A stretch of DNA of 47,928 nucleotides from the IMG/VR virus record IMGVR_UViG_2541047918_000003; one strand, given 5' to 3'. The notes below the pieces were generated by a model. It worked only from the letters and a program-made list of their open reading frames with translations. It was not told the origin of the DNA and did no database searches. The position numbers and the translations under genes were made by a program. This document shows, one piece after another, positions 1-46,962 of this stretch. How positions within the stretch are numbered: the first letter of the stretch is position 1; every line of letters starts with the position of its first letter. This DNA comes from a virus (Duplodnaviria; Heunggongvirae; Uroviricota; Caudoviricetes).

Positions 1-249
1 ATGCGTATTGAAATCTGCATAGCCAAAGAAAAAATGACTAAAATGCCAACCGGTGCTGTGGATGCGTTAAAGGAAGAATTAACCCGACGCATCAGTAAAC
101 GTTATGACGATGTAGAGGTGATCGTAAAAGCCACCAGCAACGATGGCCTTTCTGTTACGCGCACCGCCGATAAAGATTCAGCTAAAACTTTTGTTCAGGA
201 AACTCTGAAAGATACCTGGGAGTCTGCTGACGAGTGGTTTGTTCACTAA
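1..249 (+). CDS. DinI-like damage-inducible protein family
   Basis: 82 aa; ends ...[16 protein letters not shown], closely resembling the DinI C-terminus as recalled; ATG at position 1. Confidence 0.7.
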
Positions 250-40373: not shown

Positions 40374-40775
40374 GTGGAGGGTAACACCACGCTTTATGCC
40401 CTGCCGAAACCCGAGGTTGTCCTGCGCTGGCGTGAGCAGACCACAGATGACTTCCGCTTCTGTTTTAAGTTTCCGGCGACCATTTCGCATCAGGCAGCAT
40501 TACGGCATTGCGATGATTTAGTGACTGAATTTTTGACCCGCATGTCACCGTTGGCTCCGCGCATTGGACAATACTGGCTGCAACTGCCTGCCACATTCGG
40601 CCCACGGGAGCTGCCTGCGCTTTGGCATTTTCTCGATTCTCTTCCCGGTGAATTTAATTATGGGGTGGAAGTCCGCCATCCACAGTTTTTCGCCAAAGGG
40701 GAAGAGGAACAAACGCTTAATCGCGGTTTACATCAGCGCGGCGTTAATCGGGTGATTTTTATTAGACACGTTTAA
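40374..40775 (+). pseudogene. yecE: internal fragment of a DUF72-family host gene (yecE-like), truncated at both ends
   Basis: 133-aa ORF with a DUF72-like pattern (EGNTTLYALPKPEVVLRW...FRFCFKFPATISH...); frame is open upstream into the int 3' end; sequence diverges at about 40757. Confidence 0.6.
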
Positions 40776-40825: not shown

Positions 40826-42349
40826 ATGAAACGTGCCATTTCTTACATCAGGTTTTCATCTGAGAAGCAATCCCGAGGTGATTCATTACGCCGACAGTCT
40901 AAGATGGTTAATGACTGGCTTAAGGCTCATCCTGAGTACTACCTTGACCAAGATTTATCTTTTCGTGATTTGGGGGTGAGTGGGTTCACTGGTAAGCACT
41001 TGAAAGGTGGCTTAGGTGACTTTTTAACCGCTATCGAGAAAGGGCTTGTTAAAGCTGGTGATACGCTCTTGATAGAATCTCTTGACCGTCTGTCACGTCA
41101 AGATGTAGACCAAGCAAGTGAGCTACTCAGAAACATTCTTCGCTCTGGTGTAGATGTGGTCACCTTGTCCGATGGTGAACATTACACAAAGGAAAGCTTA
41201 AAAGACCCGTTAGCTCTGATTAAAAGCATTTTGATAATGCAGCGGTCGCATGAGGAGAGTTTGCGTAAATCTGAACGTATCCAAGCTGCATGGGATGCAA
41301 AGAAAGAAGCTGCTAAAGCCGGTATCAAGATTTATAAGCGTTGTCCTGCATGGCTTAAGCTTAATGATGACCGTAAGACCTTCTCTGTGATACCTGAGAA
41401 GGTAGAAACTGTGAAGAGGTGCTTTCAATTACGGTTAGAGGGTAAGTCTATTTGGGAGATTGTCAGGACTCTTAATGATGAAGGTCACCAGACACTTAAC
41501 CAGTACAAAGCAGGTAAGTTTGGTCAAACCTCAGTGCAAGACCTTCTGAAAAATCGCTCTGTAATTGGTTACTTCACACCTAAAGGCTGTGAGGAGATAG
41601 CTGGTTATTTCCCCCCTATCATCCCTGAGACTGATTTCTACAAAGTCCAGCAACTATCATATTCTCGTTATGGAAGAAAGCCTGCTTCAGATAAACCATT
41701 GAGTGTGAATCTTTTCAAAGGTGTTATCCGTTGTTCTGAATGTGGTCATGCTTTGATTATCACAGGCTTTAGCGATACAAGAAACGGGATTTATCGTTGT
41801 CCTCTTCGTAATGAAAACCGTTGTAGTGCTAAAGGACTTTCACGTAAGCAAACCGATGGTACATTGCTTGCCCTGCTATCCCGTATAGACCGATTTGATA
41901 GCGATATGACGAATACCATAGACACACTGAAGCTACACCGTGAACACATCTCAAGCAATATTGAAAAGCTGGTACAGCTATCACTTGAAATTGAAGACTT
42001 GTCCGCTATTACCAGCAAACTAAAACAGTTAAAAGGTGAGCTATCACAGGTTGATGCGGATATCGAGAAGGAGACACAACGCCTTAAATCTATTGATGTT
42101 GGTTGTTTGTCTGATTGTGACTTGACTACAAAGGCGGGAAGGATTGAAGCACAACTGATAATCAAAAGTGCTGTTAAAGAGGTCATTTTAAATACTGCTA
42201 AACGTCGCTGTAAAGTAACTTTTCACAATAGTAAGTCAATCACCCTACCAATAACAGAAACCCCCTCAGAGGACGTTACAGAGGCTATACAGTCGCTTTC
42301 TGAAGTCACTGAGAGGGGGTTGATAGATGTTGATGAGGTTATCATATAG
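40826..42349 (+). CDS. large serine recombinase (integrase)
   Basis: 507 aa; N-terminal resolvase-type domain MKRAISYIRFSSEKQ; Cys-containing recombinase domain and coiled coil; GAGGTG RBS. Confidence 0.9.
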   Translation: MKRAISYIRFSSEKQSRGDSLRRQSKMVNDWLKAHPEYYLDQDLSFRDLGVSGFTGKHLKGGLGDFLTAIEKGLVKAGDTLLIESLDRLSRQDVDQASELLRNILRSGVDVVTLSDGEHYTKESLKDPLALIKSILIMQRSHEESLRKSERIQAAWDAKKEAAKAGIKIYKRCPAWLKLNDDRKTFSVIPEKVETVKRCFQLRLEGKSIWEIVRTLNDEGHQTLNQYKAGKFGQTSVQDLLKNRSVIGYFTPKGCEEIAGYFPPIIPETDFYKVQQLSYSRYGRKPASDKPLSVNLFKGVIRCSECGHALIITGFSDTRNGIYRCPLRNENRCSAKGLSRKQTDGTLLALLSRIDRFDSDMTNTIDTLKLHREHISSNIEKLVQLSLEIEDLSAITSKLKQLKGELSQVDADIEKETQRLKSIDVGCLSDCDLTTKAGRIEAQLIIKSAVKEVILNTAKRRCKVTFHNSKSITLPITETPSEDVTEAIQSLSEVTERGLIDVDEVII

Positions 42350-43137: not shown

Positions 43138-43211
43138 TAAATTCCCCTTTGATTTCAAAGGCTTAGTGTATTTTAATCATTTTTAACCAAGCCTTTGATA
43201 TATAAGTGTTT

Positions 43212-43288
43212 TCTCTGTTAAGCGTGTTGTACGTAAATTCTATTTTTCAGTGTGGGTATTAGCTTTACAGATTTCACGTAGCATTCGA
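43212..43288. repeat. copy A of a ~77-bp direct repeat
   Basis: Shares CTCTGTTAAGCGTG, TACGTAAA and AGATTTCACGTAGCA with copy B at 45357-45433. Confidence 0.6.
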
Positions 43289-43294
43289 CTATTA

Positions 43295-45343
43295 TCAATC
43301 ATCTTCTGGGAATGATGAACTTAATAGCGTAGCTTCTGCGTATTGGTCGTAGATATTACTGCTAAAGGTCATAAAGCTGGTTTCATCTGGTTTAATGGCA
43401 ACTTCACCACCAAGTGAAACTTTCACAGGCTCCTGAATACGTTTGCTCAAAGCACTAATTTCATCTCTCAGGCTTTGGATATCCGTATTCGTTAATGCCG
43501 CATCTTGTCTCATGGTGATTAATTCTGGATGCTGGAAGTTAGCAAGATTCATAGCTGCACTATTAAACCAACCTTTCACATCGTCCATAGTAAATACTGG
43601 CTTAAGTCCAGATTCTTTAGCTAACTCTGGTAATTTAGCTTGTGCTTCCATTCGTTCAGGTGTAGAGGCTAGTCTTTCATAACCTGCATAGAGAGCGCTA
43701 CCAGCTAATAGCATATTCCCAAGATTCAGTCTTGATGGTTTCCCATTCTTTCTATTCACGTTATCCGCTGTAGTATCAGCAACCTGACCTAATCTTGTGA
43801 TAGCAGTCATAAGCCCGTAAATACTTCTGGTTACACCAACAACTTTATTTACAGCAATAACACCAGCCAAGACTTTTAAACTATTAATCAAGCCAGAACC
43901 TAAAGCATCAACAACTTTCTTTTGTTCATCGGTTAAACCACGATAAGCTAATGTCACCTCATCAAAGAACGCTCGCACCTTGTAACTAATATCGGCCAGA
44001 CTATCGACACCATGTGACATATCAGTCATCAAGCTACCAAGAGATTCACCAAGACTTTTACCACTTCCACCAAGAGCGTTTAAAAGCGTTGTTAAGCTTC
44101 TTGTAAAATCTTGCAGACCACTTTCAGAACCTCTGAAGATACTATCAAGCGTGGTATTCCAAGAGTTTTTCAGGTTCCCTAATTGTGCCTGTGTACTTTC
44201 TGAAATAGCTTTCCAGCCACCTTTAGCGGTGATTTGTCTATTCAGTTCCTGAGTGACCTTCTGAAGAGTATCGGCAGATTTTAAAGCCCCCTTCTTCATG
44301 GCATCAAATAATTCCTGTTCAGTCTTTCCGGTTGCTTTAGCGAATACCTGAACCATACCAGGAACAGCTTCAGCTAGTTGCCCCTTAAGCTCTTCAGCCA
44401 TAACCTGACCCTTACCAGCCATCTGTGATAATGCTGTCAGTGCTCGCTTAATCTCTTCTTCACTTCGACCCATCAGACGAGAATAGCCAATCATACTTCT
44501 AAAAAGTTCTTCAGAACCTTGAATACCCATAGACTCTTTAGCTGAAGCACCGAAACCAGCAAACTGTGATTGCAGTTCAGCGATATCTAAACCCGTTGTT
44601 TGAGCTAATGACTTTGTGAACTCTTTTACCTGACCTGCATCTTTATCAAATACGAAATCAATTGAACGTTCAGCACTTGCACGCTGTAAACCAATTTCCA
44701 TTACTCGCTGATAAGCTGCCAAAGCACTTTGAAAAGTGTAAATAGCCGTACCCGCTTTAATTGCACTTGAAGCTAGTACATCTAAACCATTTGAAGCATT
44801 TTCACTGTGATTATTTTTGCTGGTGGTCTTGTTAAACTTAGAAAGTGTTTCACGTAGATTTTGATTTAACTTTGCTAACTCACGATTAAAAGCTTCGTTT
44901 CCAAGTGTCTTGGATTTACTACTTAATGCGTAAAACTGACTCTTAATGTATTTCTCGACAATTGGGTTAAGACCTTTCAGCTTAGACATATTCGCTGAAT
45001 AAGCCGCTGTGATTGCTCTGTTGCCGCTAATTCGTGGCTGTCTTGGCTGTCTAAGTGGCTTTAAAGTATCCTCAATTTCCGTTTTAATCTTAAACGCTCT
45101 AGTGTTTTTAAGACGCTGCTCAATCTTGTCAAAGGTCTTATTAAACTTCCTTTCAAGTTGCCCTAAAGAACTTGTCAGATTGCTGTCAAGTTGCTTGGTA
45201 TCGACCTTAAACGCTCTATTCAAATTACGTTCAATTCTTTGTGCTGACTGCAAAGCTGCCTTTTCAACTCTTTGCAAGCCCTTAATAACGTTCTCGCTGA
45301 AGCCTAGCTCAACGATAAAACTATCAACTTTAAATTGTGCCAT
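43295..45343 (-). CDS. phage tail tape measure-like protein
   Basis: 682 aa; central motif RALTALSQMAGKGQVMAEELKGQLAEAVPGMVQVFA; long coiled-coil segments; GAGGTGA RBS. Confidence 0.7.
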   Translation of the reverse strand: MAQFKVDSFIVELGFSENVIKGLQRVEKAALQSAQRIERNLNRAFKVDTKQLDSNLTSSLGQLERKFNKTFDKIEQRLKNTRAFKIKTEIEDTLKPLRQPRQPRISGNRAITAAYSANMSKLKGLNPIVEKYIKSQFYALSSKSKTLGNEAFNRELAKLNQNLRETLSKFNKTTSKNNHSENASNGLDVLASSAIKAGTAIYTFQSALAAYQRVMEIGLQRASAERSIDFVFDKDAGQVKEFTKSLAQTTGLDIAELQSQFAGFGASAKESMGIQGSEELFRSMIGYSRLMGRSEEEIKRALTALSQMAGKGQVMAEELKGQLAEAVPGMVQVFAKATGKTEQELFDAMKKGALKSADTLQKVTQELNRQITAKGGWKAISESTQAQLGNLKNSWNTTLDSIFRGSESGLQDFTRSLTTLLNALGGSGKSLGESLGSLMTDMSHGVDSLADISYKVRAFFDEVTLAYRGLTDEQKKVVDALGSGLINSLKVLAGVIAVNKVVGVTRSIYGLMTAITRLGQVADTTADNVNRKNGKPSRLNLGNMLLAGSALYAGYERLASTPERMEAQAKLPELAKESGLKPVFTMDDVKGWFNSAAMNLANFQHPELITMRQDAALTNTDIQSLRDEISALSKRIQEPVKVSLGGEVAIKPDETSFMTFSSNIYDQYAEATLLSSSFPEDD

Positions 45344-45356
45344 TGTTCATATTTCA

Positions 45357-45433
45357 CCTCTGTTAAGCGTGAGCTACGTAAAAAATAATTTTTGGTGGGT
45401 ATATCTGTTCAGAAGATTTCACGTAGCACACAT
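45357..45433. repeat. copy B of the ~77-bp direct repeat
   Basis: About 80 percent identical to copy A; lies in the leader region upstream of the tape measure gene. Confidence 0.6.
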
Positions 45434-45526
45434 ACAAAAAAGGGAGAAACTACCGAATAATATCGATAATCTCTCCCCGTGTTATAGATTCGATAGAACC
45501 TATCTCATACACCCAACCAATCTTTT

Positions 45527-46467: not shown

Positions 46468-46720
46468 TTCATTTTCCTCTTCTAAGTAATATTCAGTTTT
46501 TAAAAAGCACACCTGACAGCCTATCTAAACTTAGAAGAGACTTAAAAGGCGGTTTGCCAAGTATGCTTTTTAAAAGCTGAAAAAGCCCTAAACATAGGTG
46601 ATTCGGATATTCATGGAATCATCCTTATCTGTGAAGGGCTTTGGAGGTTTGCTTTATAACGTTAACGAAGTTTCAGGAAAAACTTTCTTTAAAAGTTCTG
46701 TTTAAAAACTCTTAAAGAAA

Positions 46721-46740
46721 GCCCTAATCATGATTAGGGC
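46721..46740. promoter_or_regulatory. 20-bp perfect palindrome, candidate operator
   Basis: GCCCTAATCATGATTAGGGC; the AGCCCTAA half-motif recurs at about 46585, 47006 and 47413. Confidence 0.45.
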
Positions 46741-46962
46741 AAAGCTGTAAAGGGTTCAATGAATGAATGATTAAGCACTTTTCGAGATGACCTCTCAGGT
46801 TATATAAGAGGCCATGTAGCGAAAAGCATTGCACCTTTCAGAATAACTATCCCTAGATGTAGATGGAATTGTTGAAAGAAATAAGAGAGCAATTCTCTCT
46901 ATAATTAAAATTATGTCATGCTTAAGGTTATTTGTCAACAGCTTTTTAACAGATTGGTAACA

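Follow-up and report, generated by a model that had tools for sequence, protein, structure and literature searches.

Late promoters of phage P2 and its satellite P4 depend on Ogr/Delta and carry a short dyad cassette (TGT-N12-ACA, centred near -55) that is repeated before co-regulated structural operons, together with a -10 hexamer and a poor -35; the satellite reuses this cis element, and P4 late promoters respond to P2 Ogr. Inverted arms are also known from the RIP/BIME units of E. coli, in which two inverted REP arms surround a central segment and which are present in hundreds of chromosomal copies. In Vibrio cholerae, PLE satellites parasitise the virulent myovirus ICP1: they encode a large serine recombinase, their own replication initiator and a tape measure gene of their own, related to a virulent myovirus, lack capsid and terminase genes, build chimeric tails with their own tape measure protein (TMP) (PMC12987554) and are activated according to the progress of helper transcription (PMC13595925). 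The PLE literature examined reports no equivalent of the palindromic cassette described below, and our literature search found no description of this palindrome or of the element that carries it.

Here we analysed a window of 47,928 nucleotides, the whole stretch of the IMG/VR virus record IMGVR_UViG_2541047918_000003 (Caudoviricetes), in which two related repeats precede the genes for a TMP and for a 257-aa Dit-like protein. Both genes belong to an integrative element of about 11 kb that splits yecE, starting at about position 40760 inside this gene and extending beyond the end of the window. By gene content, the element resembles a PLE-type phage satellite, as it encodes a large serine recombinase, an O-like initiator with iterons inside its gene and a tape measure gene related to a virulent myovirus, and carries no capsid or terminase genes. 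Its only virion genes are those for TMP and Dit, both Felixounavirus-like. However, no sequence relationship with PLEs was detected, host and presumed helper (Felixounavirus) differ, and the element has the Dit-like gene in addition. As in P2 and P4, a repeated dyad cassette with a -10-like hexamer and at best a poor -35 stands before presumably co-regulated structural genes of a mobile element, but TGT-N12-ACA is absent and the dyad spans the predicted promoter (about -52 to +3) and is missing from the presumed helper genome. The likeness to RIP/BIME units lies in the inverted arms around a centre of fixed size in intercistronic transcribed DNA, whereas the sequences are different and there are 1-5 copies per genome instead of hundreds, in mobile elements only.

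Results

Anatomy of the repeated cassette

A repeat search of the window identified two direct copies of 71 nt each, positioned 2145 nt apart, as its longest direct repeat, all other direct-repeat families being 41 nt or shorter. The initial annotation had described repeats of about 77 bp with about 80% identity; the repeat itself was confirmed and lies far beyond chance, while the identity figure proved slightly generous, since ungapped identity is 73% and mean column identity including the flanks is 69%. The three blocks listed there as shared (CTCTGTTAAGCGTG, TACGTAAA and AGATTTCACGTAGCA) are all identical in both copies, the longest identical run being 15 nt, and both copies indeed lie upstream of minus-strand genes, those of the TMP and the 257-aa protein. 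Each repeat is a 71-bp cassette consisting of a 55-bp palindromic unit and, following it on the minus strand, a leader of 15 nt extending into the ribosome-binding site (Table 1). Copy 1 begins 5 nt past the TMP stop codon, and its end leaves 75 nt to the start of the 257-aa gene (43137).

The inverted CTACGT/ACGTAG pair noticed earlier is real and is the key feature of the repeat. Searching for two 10-nt arms at fixed spacing with up to three mismatches, we found only the two units in the window and no match in 100 dinucleotide-preserving shuffles of it. Neither unit is itself an intrinsic terminator, as no T run follows the 3' arms; the real terminator lies upstream of copy 2.

Table 1. Features of the two cassettes and of the surrounding element. 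Positions refer to the window; unit positions are counted from the gene-distal end.
Feature	Positions	Strand	Description
Cassette copy 2	45358..45428	-	upstream of tape measure gene; 55-bp unit 45373-45427 and leader block CACGCTTAACAGAG 45358-45371
Cassette copy 1	43213..43283	-	upstream of Dit-like 257-aa gene; unit 43228-43282 and leader block 43213-43226
Copy 2 gene-distal arm GCTACGTGAAATCT	45414..45427	-	unit positions 1-14
Copy 2 gene-proximal arm ATTTTTTACGTAGC	45373..45386	-	unit positions 42-55; inverted partner of distal arm, T replaces C at position 48
Copy 2 -10-like hexamer TATTTT	45382..45387	-	unit positions 41-46; TGAACA 18 bp upstream
Copy 1 gene-distal arm GCTACGTGAAATCT	43269..43282	-	
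Copy 1 gene-proximal arm AGAATTTACGTACA	43228..43241	-	last two bases degenerate (…ACGTACA)
Copy 1 -10-like hexamer TAGAAT	43237..43242	-	unit positions 41-46
Intrinsic terminator	45441..45478	-	16-pair stem followed by TTTTTTG; ends upstream operon 13 nt before copy 2; kept in related elements
Large serine recombinase of the ~11-kb element	40826..42349	+	
Tape measure protein gene, 682 aa	43295..45343	-	PF20155; N-terminal ~47 aa almost identical to Felixounavirus TMP, rest 29%
Dit-like tail/baseplate protein gene, 257 aa	42364..43137	-	PF21821; 83% identity with the protein of Felixounavirus TP1 whose gene directly follows that of the TP1 TMP

Conservation and spacing of the 55-bp unit

The arm cores CTACGTGA and TCACGTAG are 41 bp apart centre to centre and enclose a 27-bp centre containing an A-tract; this spacing corresponds to about four helical turns, so both arms would face the same side of the DNA. 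Comparison of 40 different units, drawn from two kinds of element without relation to each other, shows invariant arm cores (C2, T3, A4, C5, T7, A9 and T47, C50, G51, T52, A53; G6, G8, A49, G54 and C55 are conserved in at least 90%) and a centre that diverges, sometimes beyond recognition. All true members are nevertheless 55 bp long, save one of 56 bp. With the length fixed, the pattern search of IMG/VR yielded 16 contigs, each belonging to a yecE-type element, a P1-like phage or the locus L069. When gaps of 20-50 were allowed, the only additions were one member of 56 bp and unrelated matches inside coding sequence. Inverted half-sites conserved in sequence and held at a fixed spacing are expected of a palindromic operator. 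In addition, T41, A42 and T46 (TAnnnT, abutting the gene-proximal arm) are invariant in the 31 element units, whereas the mirror positions 15, 14 and 10 vary. Across members, 14 to about 100 nt separate the unit from the start codon. At L069, for which no match was found among E. coli genomes, a lone extra arm lies 22 nt upstream of a full unit, an arrangement that would suit binding sites.

Distribution among genomes

Further copies were found in E. coli: the cassette is present in 446 of 5,426 complete genomes, at 694 places in total (1-5 per genome, median 2), and the same palindrome occurs in P1-like phages. The host element was found in 480 of these 5,426 genomes (about 9%), and the cassette count matches element carriage. 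The cassette is thus specific to the element and is not, as had initially been considered, a common repeat scattered through the host chromosome, there being at most five copies per genome, all inside elements. As for other hosts, a search of genome contigs with the Dit protein returned only two loci, in Citrobacter and Shigella. The locus L029 had no match among plasmids. The metagenome scan mostly gave chance matches and required filtering. BLAST with copy 2 gave no match among 50,697 phage records; this reflects a sensitivity limit, because the P1 unit has only the arms in common with copy 2, and it was the pattern search that recovered it.

The same palindrome in the lox-cre region of P1-like phages

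In P1 (NC_005856) the same 55-bp palindrome, GCTACGTAAAATCT…AGATTTCGCGTAGC, occupies nt 118-172, in overlap with P3cre (pR1), the promoter annotated upstream of cra-cre; the record annotates this promoter and not the palindrome. The P1 unit has the arm cores and the total length of the element unit, is likewise positioned just 5' of the ribosome-binding site of a gene, and its centre is detectably homologous to that of the element but in inverted orientation. The annotated P3cre -10, TAAAAT, lies in the left arm, where the element has TGAAAT, the -10-like hexamer of the element being at the other arm. Furthermore, the P1 unit is single, adjoins Dam sites, a LexA box and loxP, and is followed by a recombinase operon instead of tail genes. 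In P1-like phages whose Cre proteins share only 36-77% identity, the position of the unit is constant, with lox on one side and the leading gene of the cre operon on the other; sigma70-like promoters lie 29-78 nt upstream of it and are usually better than the one in the unit. No protein common to the element and the P1-like loci was detected (blastp, 1e-3; phmmer, E<=1). The nine annotated late promoters of P1 (Lpa-dependent) all have a 9-bp "-22 box" (AACAAGTGACT-like) 4 bp upstream of the -10, and nothing like it was found in the unit.

Comparison with known sites and promoter elements

We compared the unit by eye with the consensus sequences of known regulators and sites, and each candidate either agreed at no more than 4-7 bases or did not hold up in the P1-like units. 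This held for CRP, FNR, ArgR, DnaA, LexA, Cra/FruR and PurR, for MetJ, TyrR, CpxR, TorR, SlmA, MatP and IHF, for the P1 C1 operator, ParB box A and the Ogr/Delta dyad, for sigma32, sigmaS and sigma54 promoters and the T4 MotA box, for the RfaH ops element, rrn/lambda boxA and integron attC core sites, as well as for large-serine-recombinase att sites and oriT-like nick sites.

Both -10-like hexamers, TATTTT in copy 2 and TAGAAT in copy 1, have A as their second and T as their sixth base. At copy 2, TGAACA agrees with the -35 consensus at 4 of 6 positions with an 18-bp spacer, while copy 1 has no acceptable -35. TGAACA-18-TATTTT/TAGATT scores 8/12 against sigma70 in three of the four element copies tested, and a promoter scan requiring at least 9/12 gave no site inside either copy. 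Since the terminator ends 13 nt before copy 2 and the TMP start codon (45343) follows 14 nt after its end, there is no other room for a promoter at this position.

Discussion

The 55-bp palindrome is most likely a conserved, hitherto undescribed gene-control site. Of the functions first proposed for the repeats (operator pairs, a shared promoter, a structured RNA leader, or substrates for deletion or exchange of the gene between them), a shared regulatory leader agrees with our data, the cassette being conserved, gene-proximal and element-specific in hundreds of genomes, and the unit preceding cre in P1-like phages. The operator/promoter option fits best with the invariant arm cores, the strict 55-bp spacing, the invariant TAnnnT and the position of copy 2 behind a terminator. 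We therefore tentatively favour, with confidence somewhat short of even, a cassette that acts at the DNA level as a promoter/operator bound by a putative factor. The arms would be binding sites for one protein, which probably comes from the host or is generally available in some other way, as the same arms are found in unrelated mobile elements with no common protein; the small proteins of the element had no Pfam or PHROG match. The centre and the gene-proximal arm would form a weak sigma70-type promoter (TGAACA, 18-bp spacer, TAnnnT) with the predicted start inside the proximal arm, at about unit position 53. Occupancy of the arms, whether repressing or activating, may gate how TMP and Dit are transcribed, with no dependence on the upstream operon; the latter would be halted by the strong terminator that immediately precedes copy 2. 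It may be that the promoter is incidental, as the most conserved bases are those of the arm cores and not the -10 and -35 positions. Moreover, in some related elements (L005, L006 and L275) the copy upstream of TMP is absent altogether, hence TMP can be expressed, or stay silent, without this copy. A protein-mediated loop between the arms is disfavoured, their 41-bp separation being short unless the DNA is strongly bent.

It is also conceivable, though in our estimate unlikely, that the unit works as RNA: transcribed from upstream, it would form a stem of 10-14 bp with a loop of about 27-35 nt just ahead of the ribosome-binding site and determine RNA processing or stability, or be recognised by an RNA-binding factor. 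The transcript would come from terminator readthrough at copy 2, from the TMP transcript at copy 1 and from a promoter near lox in P1-like phages. Copy 1 must be transcribed together with TMP, because no terminator lies between the TMP stop codon and the unit, and the sigma70-like promoters upstream of the unit in P1-like phages would place it in the transcript, so there an RNA role fits equally well. The predicted folds pair both arms (copy 2, -19.1 kcal/mol, z -2.34; copy 1, -10.8 kcal/mol, z -1.38; weak z-scores in both cases), and C/T at position 48, the variation seen most often in the element arms, leaves the sense RNA with either a G-C or a G-U pair there. However, pairing amounted to 85.7% versus 85.0 +/- 0.8% in shuffles (120 of 500 equalled or exceeded the observed value) and covariation to 0.094 versus 0.091, although the pairs of the 10-bp core, which never varies, are uninformative on covariation. 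Arm pairing is thus no better than base composition predicts, which indicates that sequence and not pairing is conserved. Positions 11-13 are about 50% paired, again as base composition predicts, AA-to-TT changes in one arm are uncompensated, and P1 and two further loci (L075 and L123) would have an A-C mismatch in cre-sense RNA. Furthermore, a loop of constant length and unconserved sequence would be unusual for an RNA element, the variable distance to the start codon argues against a translational operator, and a transcript from the annotated P3cre start would leave out the left arm of the P1 unit. Rfam 15 at permissive thresholds gave only one chance-level match, elsewhere in the region, and the structured RNA leader gained no positive support from covariation or Rfam.

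Several observations would suit a small palindromic insertion without regulatory role (MITE- or REP-like, or a cassette boundary), whose direct repeats mainly serve or permit the exchange or deletion of TMP. The copy upstream of TMP shows a precise presence/absence polymorphism, segments have been shuffled between the TMP and Dit copies across elements to give mosaic variants, the centre is flipped relative to the flanks in P1 and in the third copy carried by the element, an IS is inserted into the unit in Shigella, and TMP is the most variable core gene. Against this, the few copies per genome are all inside elements, no target-site duplications were found at the flanks of 40 variants, and P1-like phages keep one syntenic position of the unit down to 36% Cre identity, a constancy despite Cre divergence that points to vertical inheritance under selection. 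No element with TMP deleted between the copies was seen; one candidate for such a loss (H119) is a related element at a second site, adjoining tonB, whose TMP is interrupted by IS5 and not deleted. An identical run of 15 nt at most makes the copies a poor substrate for homologous recombination. The earlier proposal of deletion or exchange of the bracketed gene thus holds in so far as the copies swap segments, as the mosaics show, loss of TMP not having been seen, and we consider an insertion without regulatory role very improbable. A sensor of the helper phage appears improbable too: the arms would bind an activator from an infecting helper, presumably of the Felix O1 type, and the tail genes would be turned on only late in infection, much as P4 late promoters answer to Ogr and as PLEs follow their helper. 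The Felix O1-type TMP and Dit genes and the satellite-like appearance of the element speak for such a sensor, as does a -10 with a poor -35 like that of activator-dependent late promoters. But the complete genome of the Felixounavirus TP1 is devoid of the arms even with up to three mismatches at the correct spacing, the unit was confined in IMG/VR to the elements themselves, P1-like phages and L069, the overlap of one arm with the predicted start site would be odd for an activator, and P1-like phages place the unit before cre and not before a late gene. A cassette copied from a helper late promoter was dropped from consideration, as the cassette blocks are absent from TP1. The 69-aa and 235-aa proteins encoded upstream of TMP showed no similarity to Felix-type tail assembly chaperones.

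Repeated control cassettes before co-regulated genes are ordinary in themselves. The palindrome, kept at identical spacing before cre across P1-like phages even though Cre and lox have strongly diverged, may represent an unrecognised layer of control over one of the recombinases in widest use. The palindrome links two unrelated classes of mobile element that have no protein in common, which points to a common trans-acting factor, possibly of the host. As a more speculative extension, to which we give a low probability, the palindrome could serve as operator for a conserved regulator encoded outside the mobile elements (a host protein, or RNA polymerase in a special state) that has been wired into cre by plasmid prophages of the P1 family and into the TMP and Dit genes by undescribed PLE-like satellites or defence islands of E. 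coli. The cassette marks both tail genes of an element of about 11 kb that seems to be the E. coli equivalent of the Vibrio PLE satellites, and it offers a handle on when and how the element activates these genes once Felix O1-type phages infect, which is of relevance to phage therapy and biocontrol, where such phages are used. If the operator indeed belongs to a regulator from outside the elements, this would reveal a new signalling axis from host to mobile element and the first satellites of Felix O1-type virulent coliphages.

Anatomy of the repeated cassette

A repeat search recovered the direct repeats proposed in the initial annotation as two 71-nt cassettes, 73% identical without gaps, which share the sequence blocks named there in identical form; no other direct repeat in the 48-kb window is as long. 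Copy 1 lies upstream of a Dit-like gene and copy 2 upstream of the gene for the tape measure protein (TMP), each comprising five parts of which exactly 55 bp make up a palindromic unit (see table). When the two 10-nt arms were searched at the observed spacing with up to three mismatches, only these copies matched in the window and none matched in 100 shuffles. The leader of copy 2 continues directly into GAGGTG and the TMP start, and between copy 1 and the Dit-like gene there is an extra 75-nt leader with its own hairpin. An alternative small hairpin in that leader, CCTTTG-AAAT-CAAAGG, would sequester the ribosome-binding site and may be a translational switch; the arrangement is kept in related elements with the same Dit type. 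Furthermore, the strong Shine-Dalgarno sequence of the cassette stands at the optimal distance from an out-of-frame ATG opening a mini-ORF that overlaps the Felix-like TMP start. Since elements with another TMP N-terminus, MN(N)EQI…, start at this first ATG, the Felix-type N-terminus looks like a later replacement.

Features of the cassette, its carrier element and related loci (window coordinates unless a locus is named)
Feature	Position	Strand	Remarks
Copy 1 (71 nt)	43213-43283	minus	starts 5 nt past TMP stop
Copy 2 (71 nt)	45358-45428	minus	starts 13 nt past terminator
Palindromic unit, copy 1	43228-43282	minus	55 bp
Palindromic unit, copy 2	45373-45427	minus	55 bp
Part 1, distal arm		minus	GCTACGTGAAATCT
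Part 2, centre		minus	27 nt, includes ATACCCAC and an A tract
Part 3, TAnnnT hexamer		minus	TAGAAT (copy 1), TATTTT (copy 2)
Part 4, proximal arm		minus	TT(T/C)ACGTAGC, inverted complement of distal arm
Part 5, T and leader		minus	CACGCTTAACAGAG
Intrinsic terminator	45478 down to 45441		16-pair stem
TMP start	45343	minus	
Shine-Dalgarno region	45330-45350	minus	GAGGTG; ATG at 45350, 6-codon mini-ORF (MNNGTI*)
Dit-like gene start	43137	minus	
Dit-like gene leader	43138-43212	minus	13-bp hairpin AAAGGCTTGG…CTAAGCCTTT; whole-leader fold z = -3.4
Lambdoid prophage	1 to ~40760		adjoins yecE
Small element (~11 kb)	~40760 past window end		to L001 35955
Sigma70 promoter region	46513-46940		TTGACA-17-CATAAT, upstream TG, at 46938
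Terminator-like hairpins	46740-46721; 46900-46884		
27-nt inverted repeat	46492-46518 / 46555-46581		
Third arm pair (split) and 23-bp repeat	L001 35486-35631; 35580/35935		far end of element
Interrupted unit	L129 ~5331; ~9118		IS3-family insertion
Unit in phage P1	P1 nt 118-172		between loxP and cra-cre
353-aa ORF between unit and cre	L020 11271-12332		phrog_7674
Unit and lone arm	L069 4555-4726		

The carrier element

The window is E. coli chromosomal DNA, 99.8% identical to strain JNEC-KY173, in which a lambdoid prophage stands in tandem with a separate small element inserted within yecE and flanked on either side by DUF72 gene fragments. The prophage carries HK97-type head genes, a Q antiterminator, a LexA-family repressor and a tyrosine integrase, and other strains have it with yecE intact. 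The small element encodes a large serine recombinase, the Dit-like protein (PF21821), the TMP (PF20155), a pair of conserved proteins (69 and 235 aa), an O-like replication initiator whose gene contains iterons, a Dam-type methylase carrying an HTH tail and small ORFs; genes for capsid, portal, terminase, sheath and tube are lacking. Its sole virion genes, TMP and Dit-like, are each related to Felixounavirus. The Dit-like protein is 83% identical (residues 6-185, 100%) to the Felixounavirus TP1 protein encoded directly after the TMP of that phage, and the TMP is almost identical to Felix-type TMP over the N-terminal ~47 residues and 29% identical over the remainder. In the Felixounavirus phage these two genes abut with zero intergenic space and the cassette is absent.

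The closest described analogue is the Vibrio PLE satellite; PLEs are parasites of a virulent myovirus, have a large serine recombinase and supply their own TMP, giving chimeric tails (PMC12987554). No description of the E. coli family was found in the literature, and the element has the look of a PLE-like satellite, or of a tail-interference island, not described before. In addition, a near-consensus sigma70 promoter in it is followed by ~470 nt devoid of annotated genes, with terminator-like hairpins and an inverted repeat, which may encode a non-coding RNA.

Distribution and exchange of the copies

Among 5,426 complete E. coli genomes, 480 (~9%) carry the TMP-Dit region and 446 the cassette, which occupies 694 places, all chromosomal (median 2, maximum 5 per genome). 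The cassette is thus specific to the element and not a common repeat scattered through the host chromosome, which would have refuted the initial annotation. Related elements occupy yecE (L005-L007) or a second site adjoining tonB (L275) and also occur in Citrobacter and Shigella. The Dit-upstream copy was found in every element examined; in Shigella flexneri (L129) an IS3-family element sits in its centre and splits the arms apart. The TMP-upstream copy is present in L001 (the locus continuing our element past the window end), L007, L018, L036, L054, L066 and L192, and is precisely missing from L005, L006 and L275, where the terminator leads directly into GAA(C)ACTTAAGAGGTG. The 40 variants that differ in their flanks, comprising 31 different 55-mers, combine a few left halves with a few right halves as mosaics, and these halves occur at the TMP or the Dit position depending on the element; thus the two copies exchange sequence. 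Beyond the window, in the 1.1 kb of non-coding DNA at the far end of the element, there is a third and divergent arm pair, compact at 55 bp only in L258 and with arms ~100-130 bp apart in L001 and L006. Within the split pair of L001, the 23-bp TGTTCTAGGAATCAACCTCATAG is an inverted repeat of sequence adjoining the att junction.

The unit in P1-like phages

Using a pattern of 18 specified bases at a fixed 55-bp length, we found 16 contigs in IMG/VR: eight yecE-type elements, seven P1-like phages and L069, a contig with P22-like ejection-protein genes. Relaxing the gap to 20-50 added one 56-bp member and unrelated matches within coding sequences, nothing else. In phage P1 the unit and the annotated promoter P3cre overlap, the -10 of the promoter (TAAAAT) falling within the left arm, and immediately upstream come Dam sites and a LexA box; the sequence under this annotation is physically the element's unit, yet the palindrome is not annotated in P1. 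In the P1-like contigs (Cre 36-77% identical to P1 Cre, lox differing) the unit always stands between a lox-like site and the gene that opens the cre operon, ending ~17-66 nt ahead of the start codon. L020, L075 and L123 have a conserved 353-aa ORF between unit and cre, where P1 has cra alone. L069 presents a third genomic context, a full unit with a single additional arm 22 nt upstream, 3' of a virion structural gene and 5' of genes for a 487-aa protein and a 'DNA ejection protein'. Protein comparison revealed no protein that the element shares with P1 or P1-like loci.

DNA site or RNA structure

None of the 40 distinct units departs from C2, T3, A4, C5, T7, A9, T47, C50, G51, T52 and A53, but the centre varies freely. 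The centre of P1 shows detectable similarity to that of the element, although it runs the opposite way with respect to the downstream gene. The centre of the element's third copy is likewise reversed, and the similar centre of L020 has the same orientation; thus the centre has been inverted between its flanking arms on more than one occasion. TGAACA stands 18 bp upstream of the hexamer in most element copies.

We tentatively favour the reading of the repeats as a DNA-level promoter/operator cassette. The length of 55 bp is strict even where the centre has wholly diverged, placing the arm centres 41 bp, about four turns, apart; phased protein-binding sites keep such fixed spacing and RNA hairpin loops do not, so we count this as DNA-level evidence. 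Moreover, T41, A42 and T46 of the gene-side hexamer are kept in 31 of 31 element units whereas the mirror positions vary, the asymmetry expected of a sense-directed -10 element. One putative factor would bind both arms on one helix face, with the proximal arm over the predicted start of transcription and the distal one at about -50, and would gate a weak promoter in a direction that we can only infer. This would allow the TMP and Dit genes, lying beyond the terminator, to be expressed under control of their own.

That the copies act instead as an RNA leader or intercistronic hairpin would accord with copy 1 being necessarily co-transcribed with TMP and with the better promoters upstream of the unit in P1-like phages. 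Nevertheless, in the covariance analysis suggested by the initial annotation (14 arm pairs, 40 sequences) 85.7% were paired against 85.0 +/- 0.8% with the 3' letters shuffled, and the covariation score was 0.094 against 0.091 in shuffles. Pairing outside the invariant 10-bp core is at the level predicted from base composition, AA-to-TT arm changes without compensation are common, Rfam gave no match to the unit, and the folding that the initial annotation also suggested gave energies just mildly better than shuffles; we consider this explanation less likely. A sensor for a helper-encoded activator is quite improbable, weakened by the absence of the motif from a Felix-type genome, and to a structural or recombinational palindrome devoid of regulatory role we assign slightly less probability still.

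The unit does not fit P1 late promoters, Ogr/Delta-type late promoters, intrinsic terminators, REP or MITE repeats (at a median of 2 and maximum of 5 copies per genome) or any Rfam family. We therefore file it as a repeated cis-regulatory cassette of a mobile element, with added interest from the conservation of the unit across unrelated elements and from the satellite-like nature of its carrier.
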